Positions 1,991 through 43,416 of a stretch of DNA of 44,983 bases are shown piece by piece. How positions within the stretch are numbered: position 1 is the stretch's first letter; the number at the start of each line of letters is the position of its first letter. Position numbers and translations under genes: made by a program. Source of the stretch: Escherichia phage KS_S9. The stretch lies in sequence record PP920551.1; one strand, given 5' to 3'. Below the pieces are notes generated by a model that had not been told where the DNA came from, did not search any database, and saw nothing but the letters and a program-made list of their open reading frames with translations.

Positions 1991-3511
1991 ATGACCGTTA
2001 ACGTTGACAACCAGCACCCACTTTATGCGCGCATCGCGCCAGAGTGGAAGATGATCCGCGATTGTGTGGCAGGGGAGCGCGCCGTGAAGGCGTGCGGCCC
2101 TTTGTACCTGCCTCATCCCGCCAGTGGAGACAATACTGACCCGAAATCGCGGGCGCGGTATAAGGCGTACAAGCAACGCGCTGTATTCCTGAACGCCACC
2201 GCCCGCACACTTAACGCGCTGTTAGGCGTTGCCTTTGCTAAACCGGTAAGTCTGGACCTTTCCGGGGCGATGGCTGACCTGATTGACGACGTAGACGGCA
2301 GCGGTATGCCTCTGCCGCAACTACTGCGCGGTGCTATGTCGGAAGTGCTGCAATCAGGCCGTGCGGGCTTTATGGTGGACTACGATCGCCAGGCGCATTT
2401 TGATGAACTGGGTAACGTAGTTCCGCAGACAGCCGCCGAGATGGCGTCACACCGCCCGCTTATCCGCCTGTACACGGCAGAACAGATCATCAACTGGCGG
2501 CAGACCCACGGCGTCGATACGCTAATTGTGCTGAAGGAAACGGACGAAATCAGCACCGAAGACCCGGACGACTTCGCAAACCACGAAGTAACAATCTGGA
2601 CCGAGCTTCGCATGATTAACGGTGCAGCACACGCCCGCCGCTGGTACTACAACGCGGACACGTCCGAGGTGCAAATGGATTTGCCGCGTGGATTCACCCG
2701 CACCGACCTGGTGCCGCTGGTGGATGCCTCCGGTAATGCGCTTACACAACTTCCGTTTTGCTGGTGTGGTGCGGTGGACAACAACGCAACGCCTGACGCC
2801 GCTCCGCTGGCGGATATCGCGTCCATCAACATTAAGCACTACAACGCCGAAGCGGACGTCGCCGAGATTGCGCACATCGTGGGCCAACCTACCCTCGTTG
2901 CGACGGGCTTGACTCAATCATGGGCGGACAAAAACCTGAAGGGCGGCATTGCCCTCGGTGCGACTAAGGGCGTTATCCTGGGCCAGAACATGGACGCTAA
3001 ACTGATCCAGGCGGAGGAGCGCAACTTGTCGGTTGCACTGTGTGAGCGTCGCGAATTGCAAATGGCTAAACTAGGCGCAGCCCTGGTCGAGAAGGGGACC
3101 GCACCTAAGACGGCAACCGAGGCGGCCTACGATGCGCAGACTGATAACAGTATCCTGTCGCTTATTGCCGGTAACGTTGAGAAGGCTTTCAACCGTGCGC
3201 TGCAAATCGTCCAGCTATTCACGGGCGACACCGCCGACCAGCGCGTAACGCTGAACAAGTTCTACACCGAAATCACGGTTGATGCGCAGCTTATGACCGC
3301 GATGATGTCGGGGGTGCAGACTGGCACGGTCCGCCTGGCTGACTTCATCAAGTGGATGATGGCGCAGGGCGTCATCGACGACTCGCAAACTGTCGAGCAG
3401 GTGGAAGACGAATTGCGAAATCAGAATCCATTGCCTCAAATGTCCCCTGATGCGGTAGAATCTACCGAAGAAGACCCGGACAAGGTAGCGGACAATGGCG
3501 AAGACAATTAA
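1991..3511 (+). CDS. Portal protein
   Basis: 506 aa ORF immediately after large terminase, acidic C-terminus, AGGAAA RBS; gene order terminase-portal-head morphogenesis. Confidence 0.8.
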   Translation: MTVNVDNQHPLYARIAPEWKMIRDCVAGERAVKACGPLYLPHPASGDNTDPKSRARYKAYKQRAVFLNATARTLNALLGVAFAKPVSLDLSGAMADLIDDVDGSGMPLPQLLRGAMSEVLQSGRAGFMVDYDRQAHFDELGNVVPQTAAEMASHRPLIRLYTAEQIINWRQTHGVDTLIVLKETDEISTEDPDDFANHEVTIWTELRMINGAAHARRWYYNADTSEVQMDLPRGFTRTDLVPLVDASGNALTQLPFCWCGAVDNNATPDAAPLADIASINIKHYNAEADVAEIAHIVGQPTLVATGLTQSWADKNLKGGIALGATKGVILGQNMDAKLIQAEERNLSVALCERRELQMAKLGAALVEKGTAPKTATEAAYDAQTDNSILSLIAGNVEKAFNRALQIVQLFTGDTADQRVTLNKFYTEITVDAQLMTAMMSGVQTGTVRLADFIKWMMAQGVIDDSQTVEQVEDELRNQNPLPQMSPDAVESTEEDPDKVADNGEDN

Positions 3512-4598
3512 TCAATATTTGGCGGATCGAATGATTCGCCGTCACATCTTCACCCAGCGCCTGAGCAATGATCAGGCGCGGAGGGTGCTGGCTATGTGGG
3601 AGAAGTTCCGGCCCGCTTTACTGGGTAAGCTGACCGAGTTACTTGATGGCAAATCGTCAATGAATAACAAGGCACTTTCCACTCTGTTAACGCAACTCGA
3701 CAAGACCGTCAAAGCGGAACTGCGCACCGAGTTTAAGGCGCTGGCTGAAAGCCTTCAGGAGTTCGCCGACACCGAGGCTGATTATCTTGCCGACACATTA
3801 ACGGCAGCGATCCAGCCCGCGGTCGCAGTGCCTGCGGTTGAGGTGGTGGGTGTAGTGACCGGGGCACAGATCGCAGCGACGGCGATGAAAAACCCGTTCC
3901 AGGGTAATACGATGATGCAATGGCCTGACTCACTTTCTGAGTGGACCAGGACGCAGATCGGGAATCAGGTGCGCGCCGGATTCATCCAGGGCAAGCCGAC
4001 GATGGAAATTATCGCGGATGTGAGGCGCGCGCTAGGCGGTCGTAGTGCGCAAGCAATCTCAAGCGTTGTTAAATCCGCAGTCAACCACTATGCGGCTACA
4101 GCCCGCGAACTAATGGTAAAAGCAAATGACGATATTCTCGAAGGTCGCCAATGGTTATCTACATTGGACACGCATACTTCTCCCATGTGCCAGCTACGCG
4201 ATCGCCTGTTTTATCCGGTTGATGCTACTCCCGACACCAAAGGAAAGCGCGGCGGGAAAATGGTGGCTGGGTCACAATATGGCGCTGGTCCGGGCAAGTT
4301 GCATTATTGTTGCCGGTCGACGGAGACGTGGAAGGTTAAAGGCATGGAAGATTGGCCCAGTGGTAAGCGTCCGGCACTGAAGGCTGACGCGGGTCGATTG
4401 CTGAGTGAGCAGGTCGACGCGCAGACTGATTTCTTCTCATGGGTGCAGCGCCAGCCGCGCCATATCCTGGAAGAATTATACGGAGTGCAACGCGCCGACC
4501 AGATTATGCGCGGAGTGAAAGTGCCGAAGATGTTCACCGATTCCGGCGAACTAATGACTATCGCACAGCTTAAAAACCGGGGGTTATGGCGTGATTAA
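3495..4598 (+). CDS. Head morphogenesis protein (Mu F / SPP1 gp7-like minor head protein)
   Basis: 367 aa following portal; contains HYCCRS, resembling the HxNCRC signature of F-like minor head proteins. Confidence 0.7.
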   Translation: MAKTINQYLADRMIRRHIFTQRLSNDQARRVLAMWEKFRPALLGKLTELLDGKSSMNNKALSTLLTQLDKTVKAELRTEFKALAESLQEFADTEADYLADTLTAAIQPAVAVPAVEVVGVVTGAQIAATAMKNPFQGNTMMQWPDSLSEWTRTQIGNQVRAGFIQGKPTMEIIADVRRALGGRSAQAISSVVKSAVNHYAATARELMVKANDDILEGRQWLSTLDTHTSPMCQLRDRLFYPVDATPDTKGKRGGKMVAGSQYGAGPGKLHYCCRSTETWKVKGMEDWPSGKRPALKADAGRLLSEQVDAQTDFFSWVQRQPRHILEELYGVQRADQIMRGVKVPKMFTDSGELMTIAQLKNRGLWRD

Positions 4599-5811: not shown

Positions 5812-5840
5812 TAGTGTGTCCTCGTTGTTGGTGTGCAACC

Positions 5841-5869
5841 AATATATGCAACCAATACGAGGATTGCAA
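5841..5869 (-). promoter_or_regulatory. Sigma70-like promoter for gene 5047..5811
   Basis: On minus strand TTGCAA-N17-TATATT, with ATTGGTTGCA motif copies forming the -35 and spacer; about 25 nt upstream of ATG. Confidence 0.45.
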
Positions 5870-21889: not shown

Positions 21890-21969
21890 GGTATCATCCC
21901 CTATATTTGGTTGAGTTTTAGTATTACACCGCTCAACCAGGATTGCAACCAATTTAAGAGGATTTAGCT

Positions 21970-25416: not shown

Positions 25417-25446
25417 AATATAATGCAACCAACCTATTGGTTGCAA
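25417..25446 (-). promoter_or_regulatory. Sigma70-like promoter overlapping perfect palindrome TGCAACCAA-ccta-TTGGTTGCA
   Basis: On minus strand TTGCAA-N18-TATATT; palindrome 25424-25445 straddles the stop of the HAD-like gene; leader hairpin CGGGGC-N6-GCCCCG at 25391-25408. Confidence 0.45.
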
Positions 25447-25904
25447 GTGAATTTTGCAACGTTAATTGCGTAAATTTTCGGGACCAGATCGCTGCACGCC
25501 CGACGAATTGCCGCGATGTTCTTCGGGCAGTCCTCAATGATGACCAGTTCAGACACGTCCGCGTAGCAGACCATTTTGAACACGGCGCACGCCTTAAACT
25601 CAGGCGGTGGGGTGTCGTCCAACATGTGGCGCATAAACAACCGACCTACAGGGAAGACCTTCAGTTGCTCGGCGGTGGTGTCCCAACATTCGCGCTGCCG
25701 GTTTGTCAGATACGCTATCTCGAAGCCTTGCTCTTTGTACATGCGCAGCAGCGGCAGCATATCCATGTTCAGGTCTTCGCGGACGTGCGCTTTGTGCCAC
25801 TTTGCCCAAAAGGTTGATTTCGTTTTTATCCCCGGCACCAGGTCGGCACGCGCGTCGCTTGAACCGTTAATAACGCCATCCAGATCACAAATCAGTAGTT
25901 TCAT
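25434..25904 (-). CDS. HAD-superfamily phosphatase-like protein
   Basis: 156 aa; N-terminal MKLLICDLDGVI matches HAD motif I (DxDG); GAGGAG RBS; ATGA-coupled to upstream gene. Confidence 0.55.
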   Translation of the reverse strand: MKLLICDLDGVINGSSDARADLVPGIKTKSTFWAKWHKAHVREDLNMDMLPLLRMYKEQGFEIAYLTNRQRECWDTTAEQLKVFPVGRLFMRHMLDDTPPPEFKACAVFKMVCYADVSELVIIEDCPKNIAAIRRACSDLVPKIYAINVAKFTCNQ

Positions 25905-26125
25905 TTCAACTCCTCGATAAGATTCGTACGAACAATACGGGCGGAAAACGTGTCACACACAAGATGACAGCGGGCCGTCATTACAAGCCAGCCGGTAAGG
26001 TCCAGGCCGAGCAATTGCTCCGGGCGGCTGACCCGCCGTACTTTGTTCTCCCTCGGGTTAATTTGGTAGCGTTTAACAATTTCGTCCACGACGCGCATAC
26101 TGCGGTCAACGATTAAGATATTCAT
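25901..26125 (-). CDS. Hypothetical protein
   Basis: 74 aa from ATG 26125 (ORF-track GTG at 26134 also possible); translationally coupled to downstream gene. Confidence 0.4.
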   Translation of the reverse strand: MNILIVDRSMRVVDEIVKRYQINPRENKVRRVSRPEQLLGLDLTGWLVMTARCHLVCDTFSARIVRTNLIEELK

Positions 26126-26591
26126 GTAACTCACTCTCGCTCATTATTTCAATTTGTGCGCTGCCGATTGGTGGCGCTTCGTCAAAGATTATCAATTGCT
26201 GGCACTTGTTATTGCTCGGCCCGACTTCACCGGTGACGGCGTGAATGAATCTAATCCGCCAGTCCAGAAGAATTATCAGGTTTGCAGTCTTCCGGGCCAG
26301 CCTCGCCCACTTCGTCGACGTGTCCTGATTCAGTAGCATGACAGTCCGGCGACCGTGCGCTGCGCATTCCACCCACGGCAGCGGGTCGGAATACGGCGGA
26401 TTGCACCACTTCCACCCTTTCAACTCGGACCAGTCCACATCAAGCGCGCTGTGTTCCGCCGTGAAGTAACGCGGTAGCAGGTGGTTTGCATCGCTTGCCG
26501 CCATATCGTAACGGAATCGGTACTTCCGACGAAGCGGTTTAAATAAAGCTGGCGGCGTGCGCCAGCTATCTTTTTGCTCACTCTTCTGCAT
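26106..26591 (-). CDS. DNA N6-adenine methyltransferase (phage Dam family)
   Basis: 161 aa; WRTPPALF near N-terminus, DMAASDAN and NPPYS (motif IV-like) match the small phage Dam family pattern. Confidence 0.8.
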   Translation of the reverse strand: MQKSEQKDSWRTPPALFKPLRRKYRFRYDMAASDANHLLPRYFTAEHSALDVDWSELKGWKWCNPPYSDPLPWVECAAHGRRTVMLLNQDTSTKWARLARKTANLIILLDWRIRFIHAVTGEVGPSNNKCQQLIIFDEAPPIGSAQIEIMSESELHEYLNR

Positions 26592-27036
26592 GATCTGGAT
26601 CTATCGCGTACAGGGCAATTTTCTTGTCGCTGGACAGAACGCGCCGGACTCGGGCCATATCCGCCGGACCCAGCGGTCGGCCATCGGAATAGTAGCTGCC
26701 GTTAGCACGCCACGCTATCAGCACCAGATCTTTCCGGTCGATCTTAGACTGGCGGCCCTTCGGGCGCACGTATTCCTCGGCCCGTTTGCAATGCTCGCGA
26801 AGACCTTCGGCAGTGATGCGGTTTAGTGCAACGCTGGTTGTGTATCCGGTGCGCTGCATAATCCCCATCAATTCGAAAAGCAGTTCGAAGCGCTCCTCTA
26901 GCTCCTGGCGCACTTTCTTCTCACCTTCATATAGCGCCTGTTTGGTGTCCGCCAGCGCGTTCGCACGTTCGGCCTGTTCGCGGGCTTCGAGGCATTGCGC
27001 GGCCCAGTAATTTTTCTCTTCTTGTAAAATTTTCAT
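26578..27036 (-). CDS. Hypothetical protein with N-terminal coiled coil
   Basis: 152 aa, GGAGA RBS; E/R/A-rich N-terminal helix; no family recognised. Confidence 0.45.
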   Translation of the reverse strand: MKILQEEKNYWAAQCLEAREQAERANALADTKQALYEGEKKVRQELEERFELLFELMGIMQRTGYTTSVALNRITAEGLREHCKRAEEYVRPKGRQSKIDRKDLVLIAWRANGSYYSDGRPLGPADMARVRRVLSSDKKIALYAIDPDHAEE

Positions 27037-27279
27037 TTATTTAATCTCCGTAGTGCGGATTTCCTTGCGCGGAATAAATTTGCCGTCTTTCTCGACCCAG
27101 CAAGTTCCGTAACGCCATTGGGTATTACGGCCTGTTTGCTCGGCATATACGGTCTTGCATTCGTAGCGTTCCGTGTAGTAAATAGCCGCGGTAGGTACGA
27201 AAATACAAACGGCAAACATGAGGGTGAGTATCACCCAAAATCGAAGGTCGCCGTCGTAGTCGAAAAATAATGATCTCAT
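27037..27279 (-). CDS. Small membrane protein (one TM segment)
   Basis: 80 aa, GGAGA RBS; hydrophobic segment FWVILTLMFAVCIFVPTAAIYY; first gene after promoter at 27327-27355. Confidence 0.45.
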   Translation of the reverse strand: MRSLFFDYDGDLRFWVILTLMFAVCIFVPTAAIYYTERYECKTVYAEQTGRNTQWRYGTCWVEKDGKFIPRKEIRTTEIK

Positions 27280-27326
27280 TGTGTCGTCTCCGGGTATTAA
27301 AAAGGGCGTCCAAACCGGACACCCTC

Positions 27327-27355
27327 AATATAATGCAACCAATCTAATTATGCAA
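27327..27355 (-). promoter_or_regulatory. Sigma70-like promoter with tandem ATTGGTTGCA motif
   Basis: On minus strand TTGCAT-N17-TATATT; two direct motif copies 17 bp apart. Confidence 0.45.
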
Positions 27356-27360
27356 CCAAT

Positions 27361-27684
27361 TTACGAATAAAAATTTGGGTCGCGTGCAACGTCTACCAGA
27401 TACAGATTGCTGATTCGGTTGCCGTAGTGGCCTGGTGTTCGCTGGCGGCACACAACGGCGTAGCCTGGAGGAATTGTATTGCCGGTCGCGATAATCCACG
27501 CCACGCGTGCGCCAGACAGCGTCTTTCCGTTGCATTCGATACGTGTTCCGCCGTCGGCAGTATTGATGTTGCCAATCTTGCAGCCGGTGGACTTCAGACG
27601 AATGACGCCGGTTTTGCTGTCGTAGGAGAATAACTGGTTAGTCATTGCGACCGAAAAGTCGATGGCTTCGAATGTCGTATTCAT
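27361..27684 (-). CDS. HNH-family endonuclease-like protein (possibly catalytically degenerate)
   Basis: 107 aa; LFSYDSKTGVIRLK...GYAVV...GNRISNLYLV matches the layout of phage HNH homing endonucleases, but the His of the HNH triad appears replaced (VVCRQ). Confidence 0.5.
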   Translation of the reverse strand: MNTTFEAIDFSVAMTNQLFSYDSKTGVIRLKSTGCKIGNINTADGGTRIECNGKTLSGARVAWIIATGNTIPPGYAVVCRQRTPGHYGNRISNLYLVDVARDPNFYS

Positions 27685-28391
27685 TTTAAATTTTCCTCGT
27701 TAACCGCTATCGCGAAGCCGCGCGGAGTGAGCGACCGGATTAATTTTGTGCGGGCTGATTTGCCTCCGAGGCGACTATACTGCTTCGAGTACCCTTTTTC
27801 AACGAAAACGGGTTTCTTCTCTGGCATACGGAAGCCGTTGCCGGTCCATAAGCAGGTCAGCTTCGGATATGAATCGCGGGCGTTGATGTATTCCGGGAAG
27901 AGCGGGTGTACGTCATCCTCCGGCAGATATCCCCCATACTCCCACGGGTCGAATGAGTGATCCGGCTTGCGCCACTGGGTGGAAAGCACACTGCGCGGAT
28001 TCTCAATCATATACGGCACTTCGAAGAAGTCCCCCAGGTAAGCGGCGATCTTCGCGGTGCGCACCGCCTTAAGCTGAAAAGCCGGGTCTTTTTCACGTTT
28101 GCGCGGGAAAGCTGGCGCGCCGCTCACTGCCAGATCCGTACACGGAGGGAACGCATAGATGATGTCCGGCGTACCGAAATCGCCATTCATCGCGCGGTCC
28201 ACGAAGTCCAGATCGATAAACTCATTGCGATACCGGATCCCGCGACCATAAATCCGGTAGTCAAGGTAAGACCCGTGATCGGCTTCGGAATAGTTGAAGC
28301 AATAACACTTATGCCCCATCTCGGCAGCACGCTCAATCATCAAGCCGCTGCCGTCAAACAATGACCAGATTGTCATCTTCGCAATAGTCAT
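27681..28391 (-). CDS. DNA cytosine-C5 methyltransferase-like protein
   Basis: 236 aa; motif I-like LFDGSG, motif IV-like FPPCTDLAVSGA (PC dipeptide), motif VI-like MIENP; shorter than canonical Dcm enzymes. Confidence 0.5.
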   Translation of the reverse strand: MTIAKMTIWSLFDGSGLMIERAAEMGHKCYCFNYSEADHGSYLDYRIYGRGIRYRNEFIDLDFVDRAMNGDFGTPDIIYAFPPCTDLAVSGAPAFPRKREKDPAFQLKAVRTAKIAAYLGDFFEVPYMIENPRSVLSTQWRKPDHSFDPWEYGGYLPEDDVHPLFPEYINARDSYPKLTCLWTGNGFRMPEKKPVFVEKGYSKQYSRLGGKSARTKLIRSLTPRGFAIAVNEENLK

Positions 28392-29812
28392 TTGCGCGCC
28401 TTTTTAGCTTTCATGTATTCCATCAAGTCGTCCTGAATATCCCGCTTACTGTCGCGACGCTCGGCGACCAGTTCGTCCAGTGTCCCGCGCGCCTGGATAA
28501 TGTAGACGAATACCGGTCGAGGGTGTCCGGCCTGCATCTGGCGAACCGGCCCGATACGTTCAACGATCTGCGAAAAGTGCTCAAAGTTCCAGGTATCGGA
28601 GAAGATTGCCAGGTGATGACCGCCGTCCTGCAAGTTAAGGCCGTGGCCCGCCGATGCCGGGTGCGCAAACATGATGGGGATCTCGCCTCTGTTCCACGCT
28701 TCCATATCCTTATTGCCCTGCTTACCGTTACCCAGCGCAACGCCGTGCGGAAATTTCTTCTTAAGACGTGCCAGGTCATGCTTGTACTGATACGCAACGA
28801 GCAACGGCGCACCGTTCAACTCCTCCACGATACTTTCCAGCGCGTCCAGCTTCGCGTCGTGAATCTTCACCCACTCGTCGGTCCGTTCGCCGTCTTCGTC
28901 CACCTTATACACGGCCCCGGATGCAAGCTGAAGGCACTTAATTGTCTTCGATGCCGCGTTCGCCGCTTCCACTGTTCCGCTTTCCAGTTCGGCAAATAGC
29001 TCGCTTTCAAACTGGTCGTAGATCTTGCGGGCTTTCTTCGGCAGGTCCACAACAACCGGCGTATAGATTGGCTTGTCGCATCCGAAGTATTCAGCCGCGT
29101 CAACGGTTAGTGATACGTCAGACAGGCGTTGTTGTATTTCTTTCTCGGAGTTCTTTAGCGGGGCGTGCTGCATCGTGAAGCTGCCAGGCTTAACAGGCTT
29201 GCTAATGAACCAGCGATCGGTGAATGCCTTATAGCTACTGCCGAGGCGTTCGCCACCGTCGACAAACCACGTCTGACCCCATAAGTCTTTTAGCCCGTTT
29301 GGCGCTGGTGTGCCGGTAAGGTTAATCCAGCGCTTGACGTGTTTATGTGCAATCGCTGCCAGTGCGCGGGCGCGCTTGCTCCCCTGCTTGCTACGATAGC
29401 CTTTCAGCTTAGTCGATTCATCGGCAACAACGACCGTAAAGGGCCACGCATCGCCGTAATAGCCGACCAGCCACTCAACCACATCGTAGTTAACACAAAC
29501 CACGTTAGCGTCGCTCTCAAGCGCCGCAATACGGTCCTTCTCCGGCCCGGTGCCGTCTACGACCAGCAGGGATGAGAATCGCCATTTCTCCTGTTCCGGG
29601 GGCCATGTACCCGACGCAACACGCAGCGGGGCCAGCACCAGTACGCGGTCCTCATGATGGGACAGGACGCCAGTCTGGAACATTTTATTCAGCGCCCACA
29701 TTGTCGCGCCGGTTTTACCGGATCCCATTGTCGCCCATATATTACATCGCTTATGCTTGAGGATGAACGCGGTTATCAACTTCTGATATTCGCGGCGTCG
29801 GAATCGTGCCAT
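28388..29812 (-). CDS. Superfamily-2 DNA helicase (SNF2/DEAD-like)
   Basis: 475 aa from ATG 29812 (ORF-track GTG 29902 would overlap the upstream gene); Walker A MGSGKTG, DEST box VVADESTKLK. Confidence 0.75.
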   Translation of the reverse strand: MARFRRREYQKLITAFILKHKRCNIWATMGSGKTGATMWALNKMFQTGVLSHHEDRVLVLAPLRVASGTWPPEQEKWRFSSLLVVDGTGPEKDRIAALESDANVVCVNYDVVEWLVGYYGDAWPFTVVVADESTKLKGYRSKQGSKRARALAAIAHKHVKRWINLTGTPAPNGLKDLWGQTWFVDGGERLGSSYKAFTDRWFISKPVKPGSFTMQHAPLKNSEKEIQQRLSDVSLTVDAAEYFGCDKPIYTPVVVDLPKKARKIYDQFESELFAELESGTVEAANAASKTIKCLQLASGAVYKVDEDGERTDEWVKIHDAKLDALESIVEELNGAPLLVAYQYKHDLARLKKKFPHGVALGNGKQGNKDMEAWNRGEIPIMFAHPASAGHGLNLQDGGHHLAIFSDTWNFEHFSQIVERIGPVRQMQAGHPRPVFVYIIQARGTLDELVAERRDSKRDIQDDLMEYMKAKKARK

Positions 29813-29816
29813 TTCT

Positions 29817-30035
29817 TTATTCCGCCTTTTTCCAGACTTCGGTTTCACTGTTCCAGTTCCTTTTTGTAGCGTCGTAGTTGGTGGCGTGTCCGATGTGCAC
29901 ACCGGTAGCCCGGAAGCTCTTAAATTTTTGCCAGCACACCGTCAACGGCAGCGGATCATTCATGCCCGCGATAAACCATACGCGATCGCCCGGTTTACAT
30001 TCGCCCAGCTTGGTGAGTCGGTAATGTTCTTTCAT
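29817..30035 (-). CDS. Hypothetical protein
   Basis: 72 aa from ATG 30035 with GGGAGA RBS 7 nt upstream; preceded by minus-strand terminator. Confidence 0.4.
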   Translation of the reverse strand: MKEHYRLTKLGECKPGDRVWFIAGMNDPLPLTVCWQKFKSFRATGVHIGHATNYDATKRNWNSETEVWKKAE

Positions 30036-30078: not shown

Positions 30079-30252
30079 TTATTTTTGTTCTGCACGGTAG
30101 CGGCGCTGCCGTTCGCGCTCTTTCTTATTGCGGCACGATTTGCACTCTGCCCGATACCCGTCTGGACTGCGCGCAGTCTTACCGGTGTATTTGTGGAACT
30201 GGGATAGCGGCTTTACACAGCCGCAATTACTACAACGTTTTTCTTCAATCAT
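30079..30252 (-). CDS. Small zinc-ribbon protein
   Basis: 58 aa from ATG 30252 (GAGGA RBS): CSNCGC...F...DGYRAECKSC four-Cys pattern. Confidence 0.45.
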   Translation of the reverse strand: MIEEKRCSNCGCVKPLSQFHKYTGKTARSPDGYRAECKSCRNKKERERQRRYRAEQK

Positions 30253-30283
30253 CTCTAAAATCCTCGATAGTGCCAACCTGCAC

Positions 30284-30312
30284 ACTATACCGCTATGCGA
30301 CCAATTCAGCAA
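30284..30312 (-). promoter_or_regulatory. Putative internal sigma70-like promoter
   Basis: Minus strand TTGCTG-N17-TATAGT with ATTGGTTGC / ATTGGTCGCA motif copies; ~25 nt upstream of ATG 30252. Confidence 0.35.
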
Positions 30313-30571
30313 CCAATAAATCGCAGTCGGCTATGTTGTCGATAACGCGAACGTCAGCACCGCGGCGGGCCATTCGCTCATGTTCACGTACCTGGTGCGG
30401 CTTCGGTTTTCCTCCGGGGCGCTTCACTTCGACGAACACTATTTTGCCGTTGATGATAATAATCAGGTCGGGCGCACCTGCGCGCCCCTCCCATGCCAGT
30501 TTTCGGCAGAATCCGCCAACATCTTTCACCCGTCTCATCAGGTGGCTTTGAATCTTGCCTTCTGGTGTCAT
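30293..30571 (-). CDS. VRR-NUC domain nuclease
   Basis: 92 aa from ATG 30571 (TAATG overlap with polymerase stop): GAPDLIII..GKIVFVEVKRPGG..Q matches the VRR-NUC PD-(D/E)xK pattern. Confidence 0.65.
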   Translation of the reverse strand: MTPEGKIQSHLMRRVKDVGGFCRKLAWEGRAGAPDLIIIINGKIVFVEVKRPGGKPKPHQVREHERMARRGADVRVIDNIADCDLLVAELVA

Positions 30572-36937: not shown

Positions 36938-36967
36938 ATGATAGATTGGTTGCAGGATGGGTGTCAA
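36938..36967 (-). promoter_or_regulatory. Strong sigma70-like early promoter (leftward)
   Basis: Minus strand TTGACA-N18-TATCAT with GCAACCAAT motif in the spacer; ~190 nt leader to ATG 36741. Confidence 0.5.
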
Positions 36968-39748: not shown

Positions 39749-39861
39749 ATCCTGCGCGCATTGGTTGCCGATATGGGGATTACCATATCGCTAAAAGGTT
39801 AAATTTTGCGCGCATTGGTTGCCATTTTGAGTGTTTTTATCAGGTAGTATTGGTTGCCGTG
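39745..39861. repeat. Three direct repeats carrying TTGGTTGCC immediately downstream of primase-helicase gene
   Basis: TTAAATCCTGCGCGCATTGGTTGCCGAT at 39745, TTAAATTTTGCGCGCATTGGTTGCCATT at 39799, GTATTGGTTGCCGTG at 39847. Confidence 0.75.
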
Positions 39862-39894
39862 TATTGTGAATATAGTGAATAGTTATGCAGTTTT

Positions 39895-40065
39895 GGTGCA
39901 TAAAGTAAGCGGGACAGAAAGCGGGACAAACAAGGGGCGGGACAAAGCGGGACAGCACCCCCGTCCCGCCCCGGATGGCGCGGCCTGGAGAGGAGCGGGA
40001 CAGGCGGGACAACCCCCAGTCTTTCAGACTAGACGGGGGTCAGCGGCCCCCCTCGTCTGAGACTG
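39895..40065. repeat. Second copy of GGGACA-iteron plus hairpin element
   Basis: GCGGGACA x6 followed by hairpin CAGTCTTTCAGACTAGACGGGGGTCAGCGGCCCCCCTCGTCTGAGACTG; near-identical to 11572-11741 (loop differs TCAATGG vs TCAGCGG). Confidence 0.8.
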
Positions 40066-40282
40066 AATAAAATCCGGGGATTGCAAAATACACGGCAGCA
40101 CGATGCGAAGTGCTGGCGAGGATGAACTAGGCAACCAATACGAGTTGCATTATGCTGAGTGAAAAATGCAGTTTGCAGTCACAGCAGATAGCGATCAACT
40201 TTTTCATGCGCGTGATTAATATTGGTTGCATTCGGCCTGGCACCCGGCTATATTGGTCGCACACCAACATGAGGACTGATCG

Positions 40283-40597: not shown

Positions 40598-40873
40598 ATG
40601 GGACGTAGACGAGCAAAACAGCTTTCGTGGCATATTCCCCTGCATTGCATACGAATATGGGCGGAGAATGCAGTTGAGGGAGAATCGGTATTCTGGTGCT
40701 ATCGCGACGACGTAAAGCCGTTGACGCAGACTCGCTACTTGCACCAGTTCGCAGCACAACATGATTTCAGGGTGCGGACTTCCTTGCAACCAATGGGGAT
40801 TCGTATTACATTACGCCGGAAGCCAGCCGTTGAGCGGGTAGGCAAACACTGGAGACTGCGCAAATGTTCTTAG
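40598..40873 (+). CDS. Hypothetical protein
   Basis: 91 aa, AAGGGG RBS. Confidence 0.45.
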   Translation: MGRRRAKQLSWHIPLHCIRIWAENAVEGESVFWCYRDDVKPLTQTRYLHQFAAQHDFRVRTSLQPMGIRITLRRKPAVERVGKHWRLRKCS

Positions 40874-43352: not shown

Positions 43353-43416
43353 ATTGCTTGACTCGCAACCAACACAGGGGCCATACTGCAACCAATCAAC
43401 TGGAGGAGTAATCAAG

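Follow-up and report, generated by a model that had tools for sequence, protein, structure and literature searches.

Two DNA methyltransferase genes and a probably domesticated, HNH-derived core gene in the leftward replication block of the Dhillonvirus KS_S9

The DNA analysed here, a 44,983 nt stretch of Escherichia phage KS_S9 (PP920551.1) and referred to as the window, belongs to a Dhillonvirus (HK578-like) coliphage with about 93% identity to phage Oekolampad/Bas18. An initial annotation reported two different DNA methyltransferase genes and an HNH-like gene on its minus strand. All three ORFs (161, 107 and 236 aa) are real, with coordinates exactly as first reported, and they lie downstream of a helicase gene in the following arrangement.

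26106–26591, minus strand: phage Dam-family (PF05869) N6-adenine DNA methyltransferase, 161 aa (PF05869, phrog_111 and an NPPY motif)
26578–27036, minus strand: ORF of 152 aa (phrog_10530, E=7e-93)
27037–27279, minus strand: ORF of 80 aa; visual inspection suggests one hydrophobic stretch (phrog_18961, E=5e-51)
27297–27360, minus strand: conserved intergenic region, putatively regulatory (sequence, fold and conservation)
27302–27326, minus strand: 10 bp hairpin, followed by a T-tract at 27297–27301 (sequence and fold)
27355–27327, minus strand: promoter-like site, TTGCAT-17-TATATT (sequence)
27351–27360 and 27334–27343, minus strand: two ATTGGTTGCA repeats (sequence)
27361–27684, minus strand: truncated, HNH_3-derived protein, apparently nuclease-dead, 107 aa (phrog_99, hhalign and alignment)
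27681–28391, minus strand: minimal phage C5-cytosine DNA methyltransferase ('Dcm-like') with a reduced TRD, 236 aa (motifs, relatives and fold)
28388–29902, minus strand: SNF2-family DNA helicase (PF00176, E=8.4e-10; phrog_62, E=5e-156)

Conservation and synteny were assessed in eight Dhillonvirus genomes, including HK578, PNS1, PaulFeyerabend, Ioannina, Envy and WFI. The stop of the SNF2 helicase gene overlaps the start of the Dcm-like gene by 4 bp, and the stop of the latter overlaps the start of the HNH-like gene by the same length, an overlap that is kept in all eight. The HNH-like gene had been described as flanked by the two methyltransferase genes; it does overlap the Dcm-like gene, but is not adjacent to the Dam gene, as the 80-aa ORF, the 152-aa ORF and the conserved intergenic region lie between them. 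Similarly, the genes share one strand and one gene block, but their assignment to the same operon is uncertain because the intergenic region holds a promoter-like site and a hairpin with T-tract. This region hardly varies among the eight Dhillonviruses, the stem changes seen in Ioannina and Envy being compensatory, and the WFI record has a terminator annotated at the equivalent place. Its predicted fold has an energy of −19.9 kcal/mol with a z-score of only −1.38, computed on the whole 78-nt segment. The ATTGGTTGCA motif, which lies just downstream of the HNH-like gene, is over-represented (18 occurrences vs 3.07 expected); a role as operator for the HNH-like protein is unsupported, the motif being absent from the loci of related proteins in Edwardsiella phage eiAU-183 and in L010 and L011. 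The 80-aa ORF is accessory, and is missing from HK578, PNS1, PaulFeyerabend and Ioannina. HK578 also lacks the 152-aa ORF, which has no match in Pfam or NCBIfam and is labelled 'DNA ligase' in PHROGs and in some records, while the Envy record reads 'Possible DNA ligase but no evidence'.

The three genes are near-universal in Dhillonvirus (about 154–161 records each), and dN/dS is no higher than 0.13 for any of them. The Oekolampad/Bas18 record already labels the same trio as Dam-like methyltransferase, putative homing endonuclease and Dcm-like C5 methyltransferase, labels that the trio also bears in over 140 deposited genomes of Dhillonvirus, so that the finding is real and largely ordinary.

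The presence of two different methyltransferase genes, PF05869 Dam and a minimal C5 enzyme, is confirmed, and both are conserved (dN/dS 0.02–0.13). Residues 3–143 of the Dam protein match PF05869 (E=1.8e-35; 122.5 bits, cut-off 28.1), and the protein also matches phrog_111 (E=5e-55). The NPPY sequence at residues 64–67 represents catalytic motif IV, (D/N)PPY, and is identical in all eight Dhillonvirus sequences. The protein is 100% identical to the Dam of phage welsh, and shares 37% identity with Stx-phage Dam homologues and 31% with the 'Dam methylase' of phage T1. It resembles the PF05869 phage Dams (T1, Stx-phage, HP1) in its NPPY motif and its size of about 160 aa, but differs in scoring below the equivalog threshold of NCBIfam TIGR01712 (86.1 bits vs 97.05), which makes it a family member rather than a protein of equivalog level. 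Its product is most likely N6-methyladenine, and its target is presumably GATC, as assumed from characterised members of the family (T1/HP1 literature).

The 236-aa Dcm-like protein displays the core motifs of a C5 methyltransferase: motif I, for SAM binding, as FDGSG (residues 12–16), motif IV, which holds the catalytic nucleophile, as PPC with Cys84 (82–84), and motif VI, whose Glu protonates N3, as ENP with Glu130 (130–132). All three are invariant across 33 relatives (57–84% identity). Direct sequence searches failed: the protein itself matches nothing in Pfam (including PF00145) or NCBIfam, and when it and a profile of the 33-member family were searched against all PDB chains, no solved C5 methyltransferase was retrieved and the only match was a spurious one to a kinase. 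Its kinship to the C5 methyltransferases is consequently based on the motifs, transitive Pfam matches and the predicted fold. Eighteen of the 33 relatives match PF00145, and three exceed its gathering score, through motifs I–IV only (P0020, P0022 and P0061, 61–63% identical to the window protein, at 28.5, 24.7 and 25.4 bits vs 22). The predicted fold agrees with those of C5 methyltransferases, the nearest structures being DNMT3 enzymes, which have small TRDs. A large variable TRD between motifs VIII and IX is absent, and the region after motif VI (residues ~140–190) is short and nearly invariant across the family. Although Pfam does not recognise the protein, calling it 'Dcm-like' is justified. 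It has no Vsr partner, and E. coli Dcm is not its orthologue; bacterial C5 methyltransferases such as E. coli Dcm, M.HhaI and M.HaeIII (PF00145) are also longer (~330–470 aa), and their canonical motifs IV and VI read PCQ and ENV, where the phage protein has PPCT and ENP. The family is represented in about 1500 phage records. In Ioannina, an apparent N-terminal truncation of the protein is an annotation artefact, the ORF being intact with a GTG start.

Activity has been reported for a short enzyme of this kind, the Dcm of phage K42 (KarlJaspers, Drexlerviridae), a trigger of retron Eco1/Ec86. The K42 protein raised 5mC on msDNA, as measured by LC-MS, and its triggering of Ec86 required a CCTGG motif (bioRxiv 10.1101/2023.08.16.553469, restated in PMC12916289). 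It is encoded by a 711 bp gene, was active when expressed alone, and was mutated at residues C82, E128, K175 and K176; its specificity was deduced by mutating the motif in msDNA, and in strain MG1655 the host's own Dcm did not have the same effect, so that the specificity or activity of the phage enzyme may differ from that of E. coli Dcm (bioRxiv 10.1101/2023.08.16.553469). The window protein shares 54% identity over its full length with a 236-aa protein of Hanrivervirus aaroes, which carries C82, E128, K175 and K176 with the same numbering and gene length as K42 Dcm. Given these two agreements, and the genus of KarlJaspers, which we take to be Hanrivervirus, we infer that K42 Dcm is the orthologue of the aaroes protein. 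Linked in this way, Cys84 and Glu130 of the window protein occupy positions equivalent to the catalytic Cys and Glu of K42 Dcm, the genes are of equal length (711 bp, 236 aa), and the fold predicted for each protein resembles DNMT3A. They differ in that the DNA-contact residue K176 corresponds to L178 in the window protein, and in gene context, the Dhillonvirus gene being wedged between the SNF2 helicase and HNH-like genes with overlapping stops and starts. By analogy with K42 Dcm, the protein would act as a minimal C5 methyltransferase on a CCWGG-type target, and it may carry a known cost, in that a Dcm of this kind can trip retron Eco1/Ec86.

Both methyltransferases are orphans, that is, without a cognate restriction enzyme, and had been taken to provide broad anti-restriction protection, a view that published phenotypes do not support. 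When the BASEL phages were tested against type I and type II R-M systems, the restriction-resistant Queuovirinae contrasted with the Dhillonvirus and Drexlerviridae groups; Dhillonviruses remained sensitive to restriction rather than notably resistant, and the methyltransferase genes of related Drexlerviridae showed no simple link to restriction resistance (PMC8594841). A search of the literature for methylomes or restriction digests of Dhillonviruses returned none. In the window, neither GATC (178 observed, 213 expected; ratio 0.84) nor CCWGG (149 observed, 165 expected) is avoided; sites that are avoided include GAATTC (1 vs 4.8 expected) and CTGCAG (2 vs 10.8 expected). In Escherichia coli K-12, GATC and CCWGG are methylated by the host itself, and the benefit of phage copies of these enzymes is therefore not obvious. 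Presumably, both would modify phage DNA during its replication more quickly or more fully than host Dam and Dcm, which could give some protection, including in hosts that lack the two marks. Any such protection can extend only to enzymes that are unable to cut once the two target motifs are methylated, and is probably narrow.

An alternative is that the methyltransferases serve mainly non-defensive ends, marking DNA for replication, packaging or regulation, or allowing escape from MutH mismatch repair. The usual hosts already possess Dam and Dcm, Dam methylation has a role in phage P1 packaging, and both genes are situated within the replication module under strong purifying selection. The unremarkable restriction resistance of Dhillonviruses, and the failure of methyltransferase content to predict phenotype in Drexlerviridae, point the same way (PMC8594841). 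Against this, the present analysis identified no element for regulation or packaging that depends on GATC or CCWGG, and orphan phage methyltransferases of these families are generally read as anti-restriction. Among natural E. coli and other Enterobacteriaceae, many either lack Dcm or carry R-M systems specific for GATC or CCWGG, and on balance we regard a mainly non-defensive role as rather unlikely.

The third gene of the trio specifies a 107-aa protein that matches PHROG 99 (phrog_99, E=1.5e-16) and, over residues 9–99, aligns by hhalign with intact HNH_3+AP2 proteins (99.1% probability, E=1.9e-18). Against the HNH_3 model itself (PF13392) it reaches 13.1 bits, below the gathering score of 24.8, and covers profile positions 5–21 only. 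It shares an N-terminal F-Y-D-x-x-T-G hairpin, an A-W helix and an NR..NL segment with the HNH_3+AP2 homing endonucleases (PF13392 and PF00847). The catalytic His had been thought to be replaced, and both alignment and hhalign bear this out, as the Asp-His dyad of the endonucleases, which supplies the metal ligand and the general base of the ββα-metal site, aligns to Val78-Cys79. In the wider clade of dead relatives these two positions vary (V-C, T-L, R-C, T-C and R-P). Other differences from the endonucleases are an Ala in place of the His of 'HR(l)AW', and an insertion of two residues (PG, in 'PGHY'). An AP2/NUMOD-type DNA-binding module is absent, since the protein ends about 10 residues past the NL motif, where intact relatives continue into AP2. 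On these alignments, the small gene is a derivative of an HNH_3+AP2 homing endonuclease that lacks the Asp-His dyad and the AP2 tail. AlphaFold, working from a shallow alignment, returned a model with a pLDDT of 57, and a Foldseek search with this low-confidence model had no match better than E=1, with just a few HNH-domain fragments, none of them significant; the case for a non-nuclease role is accordingly made from the missing residues.

GenBank records label the protein as 'putative homing endonuclease' or 'HNH endonuclease', and one reading is that it has kept homing or nicking endonuclease activity by way of a non-canonical site. Residues H86, N89, N93 and N104 are invariant within the HNH-like clade, the Asn residues of the ββα region are retained, and H86 and N104 could in principle form an unorthodox active site. 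Set against this are the loss of both residues of the dyad, with replacements that are unconserved in the wider dead clade, the loss of the His that lies upstream, in the AHRLAW motif, the missing AP2 or NUMOD DNA-binding tail, and the low HNH_3 score. The gene also occupies one fixed locus in every genome examined, the opposite of what is seen with homing endonucleases, and a retained nuclease activity appears very unlikely.

The distribution of the gene bears equally on its proposed decay. It occurs in 161 phage records, with coverage of at least 80% in each, compared with 160 Dhillonvirus-type DNA matches; it is at one locus in 8/8 genomes, and dN/dS values of 0.05–0.10 indicate purifying selection. 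These 161 records do not show the patchiness typical of a mobile endonuclease. The suggestion that it is a decayed homing endonuclease is not borne out by a gene that is intact and always syntenic, and the same selection values and intact ORFs rule out a pseudogene or decaying element. Of the two possibilities raised in the initial annotation, a repurposed DNA-binding protein is the better one. Near-universal presence in Dhillonvirus, together with purifying selection, instead suggests a domesticated, nuclease-dead protein that is neither decaying nor mobile and that, as a fixed core gene, works in a non-nuclease capacity.

Relatives in other phages help to place this function. A homologue, gp17 of Edwardsiella phage eiAU-183 (40% identity), also lacks the Asp-His dyad, differs in having a NUMOD-like N-terminal extension, and is encoded downstream of an SNF2 helicase and next to genes for a C5 methyltransferase and a PF05869 Dam. 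The order there is helicase, dead HNH, C5 methyltransferase, Dam, unlike the window, where the Dcm-like gene lies between helicase and HNH-like genes. The eiAU C5 methyltransferase (330 aa, canonical-length PF00145) has no detectable similarity to the short Dcm-like family, which indicates that the two genera carry different C5 enzymes. Dead-HNH relatives also follow the SNF2 helicase in L010 and L011, with no methyltransferase at the locus shown in either, and the L011 protein has an HTH-like C-terminal tail. The conserved neighbor across genera is the SNF2 helicase and not the methyltransferases.

That the dead-HNH protein is instead the DNA-targeting or regulatory partner of a TRD-poor methyltransferase, the translationally coupled genes forming one functional unit, is suggested by the 4 bp overlap kept in all eight Dhillonviruses, the unusually small size of the Dcm-like enzyme (236 aa) and the position of the eiAU-183 homologue directly upstream of PF00145 and PF05869 methyltransferase genes, but is highly improbable given that about 1500 phage records contain the methyltransferase family and only 161 the HNH-like gene, that none of the neighbors of the aaroes Dcm gene is an HNH gene (judged by annotation labels alone), that K42 Dcm is active by itself, that the eiAU enzyme shows no kinship to the short family, and that the relatives in L010 and L011 follow a helicase without any methyltransferase. 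These last relatives weaken any accessory role for the dead HNH protein in methylation, and a link between it and the methyltransferases is not supported.

Most probably, then, the HNH-like protein is a factor that binds DNA or another protein and belongs to the replication module of the SNF2 helicase, not to a methylation system. A narrower proposal, that it is a sequence- or structure-specific DNA-binding core factor of a module common to Dhillonvirus and Eiauvirus, acting with the SNF2 helicase or, less likely, as a targeting or regulatory subunit of the Dcm-like enzyme, is speculative, and we consider it unlikely to hold in that exact form. With good confidence, the locus as a whole can be read as a leftward replication/DNA-metabolism block in which two orphan methyltransferases accompany a domesticated, nuclease-dead, HNH-derived core protein of the helicase module.

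For the Dhillonviruses, these results correct the common annotation of a 'homing' or 'HNH endonuclease' at this locus, since its product is without the catalytic dyad and its distribution is that of a fixed core gene. They temper the notion that two methylases confer broad resistance to restriction, and confirm the soundness of the 'Dcm-like' label for a short enzyme family whose activity and place in retron Eco1 sensing have already been reported. Dhillonviruses are in use in studies of defence systems (BASEL phages Bas14–18 and SECphi18), and this region of their genomes holds known or likely immune triggers, namely the Dcm-type enzyme and an ORF at the Ksap1 position.

A 6-kb stretch around the three genes was matched by 160 phage records (megablast), nearly all of them from Escherichia or Shigella phages of the genus Dhillonvirus, the HK578-like siphoviruses with genomes of 43–46 kb, and the top match was phage Oekolampad (BASEL Bas18; 93.7% identity). 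Its genes are labelled 'Dam-like N6-adenine methyltransferase', 'putative homing endonuclease' and 'Dcm-like C5 cytosine methyltransferase', with equivalent labels in further phage records; the three-gene content is already annotated across many genomes, the gene calls are correct and the observation is real. The ORF map agrees exactly with the coordinates in the initial annotation, and places the genes in a minus-strand block together with DNA polymerase I, a VRR-NUC-like ORF, an SNF2 helicase and a HAD phosphatase. The GC skew of the window changes direction near 24 kb and again near 37 kb. The features of the region are:

26106-26591, minus strand, Dam gene (161 aa)
26578-27036, minus strand, 152-aa accessory ORF, labelled 'DNA ligase' without evidence in PHROGs and some GenBank records
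27037-27279, minus strand, 80-aa accessory ORF with one hydrophobic stretch
27297-27360, minus strand, 64-bp intergenic region, lying between HNH-like stop and next ORF
27297-27326, minus strand, 10-bp GC-rich hairpin and T-tract, directly after a promoter-like site and ahead of the RBS of the 80-aa ORF
27361-27684, minus strand, HNH-like gene (107 aa)
27681-27684, minus strand, 4-bp overlap of Dcm-like stop and HNH-like start
27681-28391, minus strand, Dcm-like gene (236 aa)
28388-28391, minus strand, 4-bp overlap of SNF2 helicase stop and Dcm-like start
28388-29902, minus strand, SNF2 helicase gene

The first gene was correctly assigned to the Dam-family N6-adenine methyltransferases, as its product matches PF05869 (122.5 bits, cut-off 28.1) and carries an NPPY motif at residues 64–67. 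It also matches phrog_111 (E=5e-55), is 100% identical to a protein of phage welsh, 37% to Stx-phage homologues and 31% to a phage T1 gene annotated 'Dam methylase', and falls short of the TIGR01712 equivalog cut-off (86.1 vs 97.05). Characterised PF05869 Dam members (T1, HP1) are specific for GATC. A 74–77-aa ORF (25901-26134, minus strand; phrog_10685) separates the Dam gene from that of the HAD phosphatase and corresponds in position and size to Ksap1, by which Dhillonvirus phages directly activate the Klebsiella immune sensor Avs2 (PMC11564622). The same study reported defence against the window's closest relative, Bas18/Oekolampad (PMC11564622).

Searches of Pfam and NCBIfam with the Dcm-like protein gave no match, and no solved C5 methyltransferase was found by sequence, even with a profile of its 33-sequence family. 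Its proposed identity as a C5-cytosine methyltransferase was borne out by other means. Across relatives of 57–84% identity, F12/G14/S15/G16 (motif I), P82/P83/C84 (motif IV) and E130/N131/P132 (motif VI) are invariant, and residues 140–225 form a conserved block. PF00145 is weakly matched by 18 of the 33 relatives, three of which pass its gathering score over motifs I–IV. AlphaFold predicted the structure with confidence (pLDDT 89.5, pTM 0.88), and all 50 matches listed by Foldseek in the PDB were DNMT3A/B catalytic domains. The family of short Dcm proteins is represented by 2877 clusters in a metagenome-scale database, all of about 230 aa, and by 1509 phage records (Drexlerviridae, Vequintavirinae-like, Krischvirus, and Klebsiella and Salmonella phages). 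In phage Ioannina (OQ589852.1), the deposited cytosine methyltransferase begins at an internal Met and so loses the FDGSG SAM-binding motif; the ORF itself (1488-2204 of the extracted locus) is intact, with 238 aa and a GTG start overlapping the helicase stop codon. Ioannina also has a second annotated N6-adenine methyltransferase gene, downstream of the phosphatase.

The Dcm-like protein shares 54% identity over its full length with a 236-aa protein of Hanrivervirus aaroes. From gene length, residue numbering and the genus of phage KarlJaspers, which we take to be a Hanrivervirus, we infer that the aaroes protein is the equivalent of the Dcm of phage K42. K42 is a KarlJaspers-like Drexlerviridae phage whose 711 bp dcm gene encodes a product that was modelled on DNMT3A and inactivated by mutation of C82, E128, K175 and K176 (bioRxiv 10.1101/2023.08.16.553469). 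The aaroes protein has exactly these residues, which correspond to C84, E130, K177 and L178 in the window. Wild-type K42 Dcm raised 5mC on the msDNA of retron Ec86 (LC-MS), and defence required the CCTGG motif; triggering of retron Eco1 is a documented liability of the short Dcm type (bioRxiv 10.1101/2023.08.16.553469; PMC12916289). Of the families here, only the short Dcm looked odd, and an activity has already been reported for it. Because of the motifs, the PF00145-matching relatives, the predicted fold and the K42 literature, we accept the protein as a minimal, TRD-poor phage-type C5-cytosine methyltransferase; 'Dcm-like' labels its probable function and does not imply orthology to E. coli Dcm.

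The two methyltransferases were said to flank the HNH-like gene within one operon. The Dcm-like gene does adjoin it, but Dam is separated from it by the 80-aa and 152-aa ORFs. Both are accessory genes, variably present in Dhillonvirus: HK578 lacks the two of them, and the 80-aa ORF is also missing from PNS1, PaulFeyerabend and Ioannina. The 152-aa ORF had no match in Pfam or NCBIfam. All lie in one minus-strand block, but operon status is uncertain, since the intervening 27297-27360 region is conserved and a terminator is annotated at its equivalent in the WFI record. The region holds two copies of the repeat ATTGGTTGCA, a promoter-like site (TTGCAT-17-TATATT) and the 10-bp hairpin followed by TTTTT; it is near-invariant among the eight Dhillonviruses compared, with compensatory changes in the hairpin stem in Ioannina and Envy. 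A hairpin that follows a promoter suggests attenuation, or a 5' stem that stabilises the mRNA, more than it does a mere boundary between operons. A modest new point is that the two methylases do not adjoin: accessory genes and a conserved regulatory stretch lie between them.

The 10-mer ATTGGTTGCA occurs 18 times in the window with up to 1 mismatch (3.07 expected; 0 of 100 shuffles reached 18), mostly in direct or inverted pairs (5834-5856, 21944-21953, 25424-25445, 27334-27360, 30296-30317, 36945-36954, 39760-40261, 40785-40794 and 43387-43396). It overlaps promoter-like hexamers in at least two places (TTGCAT-17-TATATT and TTGCAA-18-TATATT) and was present in 7/7 Dhillonvirus loci fetched, while none was found in the loci of Edwardsiella phage eiAU-183, aaroes and the metagenomic contigs L010 and L011. 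Its probable role is that of a promoter or operator element specific to the phage.

Under a maximal-order Markov model of the whole window, neither GATC (178 observed, 213 expected) nor CCWGG (149 vs 165) is avoided, which fits self-protection at both methylated motifs but would fit growth on Dam+ Dcm+ hosts just as well. Depleted palindromes are GAATTC (1 vs 4.8), CTGCAG (2 vs 10.8), CTAG (22 vs 50), TATA (78 vs 116) and GGCC (185 vs 255). The suggested broad anti-restriction protection is unsupported, because the BASEL study contrasted restriction-resistant Queuovirinae with Dhillonvirus and Drexlerviridae for type I and II R-M systems and, within Drexlerviridae, saw no straightforward relationship of MTase genes to restriction phenotype (PMC8594841). 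A reasonable reading is that the methylases give narrow protection against enzymes blocked by their two marks. A literature search for methylome data found none for any Dhillonvirus member.

The HNH-like protein matches PHROG 99 ('HNH endonuclease', E=1.5e-16), and PF13392 at just 13.1 bits over the first half of the profile. Only 24 relatives were retrieved when 1.84 billion representatives were searched exhaustively with a profile; the more distant ones are intact HNH_3+AP2 proteins (hhalign 99.1%, E=1.9e-18) and the nearest form a small clade with the same defects. In the multiple alignment and hhalign, the canonical '...aHRlAW...IDHiN..(D)NRieNLR...N..N + AP2' aligns to '...GARVAW...VVCRQRTPGHYGNRISNLY...' and then a stop codon. 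The catalytic His is indeed replaced, with V78-C79 at the Asp-His dyad (T-L, R-C, T-C or R-P in other members of the clade); alanine takes the place of the upstream His, and the protein lacks the AP2 DNA-binding domain.

Could this dead-HNH protein be a dedicated partner of the methylases? The Dcm-like gene of Dhillonvirus apparently lies between those for the SNF2 helicase and the dead-HNH protein, and in eiAU-183 the order is helicase, dead-HNH (gp17), a 330-aa PF00145 MTase with no detectable relationship to the short Dcm family, and a PF05869 Dam. In L010 the dead-HNH homologue starts at the helicase stop, and L011 runs helicase, DUF7167, dead-HNH with a C-terminal HTH-like tail, two small ORFs and HAD phosphatase, with neither a Dam nor a Dcm gene in the replication module of the locus shown. 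The constant neighbour across these three is therefore the helicase, not a methylase, and roughly 1500 phages have a short Dcm without a dead-HNH gene, both of which argue against a methylase partner. A small Cys-rich ORF (…CSNCGCVKPLSQFHKY…SPDGYRAECKSCRN…), which probably encodes a zinc-finger protein, lies upstream of the helicase region and is conserved in both the window (30079-30312, minus strand) and the distant L011 (1023-1271).

The gene neither decays nor behaves as a mobile homing endonuclease: tblastn detected it without truncation in 161 phage records (157 Dhillonvirus-type and 4 Edwardsiella eiAU), and it lies at one same locus in every genome examined, and has a dN/dS of 0.05–0.10 with dS up to about 1.9 (Nei-Gojobori; Dcm-like 0.02–0.06, Dam 0.02–0.13), a fixed, selected gene being the opposite of what a homing endonuclease does. 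A further modest new point is that GenBank is very probably wrong in calling it a 'homing endonuclease': judged from its sequence, the 107-aa protein is truncated and nuclease-dead, and its gene is a fixed core gene under purifying selection. In L011 (SRR30726810_2046, 3112-3594), the dead-HNH domain continues into a C-terminal segment of helix-turn-helix-like sequence (…LTAKTIAKKVGVSYSYLKQV…). Its relatives thus differ in their DNA-binding add-ons (NUMOD-like at the N-terminus of eiAU gp17, the HTH-like tail in L011), which would fit a putative non-catalytic DNA-binding role. The third modest new point is that, by synteny, the SNF2 helicase is its conserved partner.
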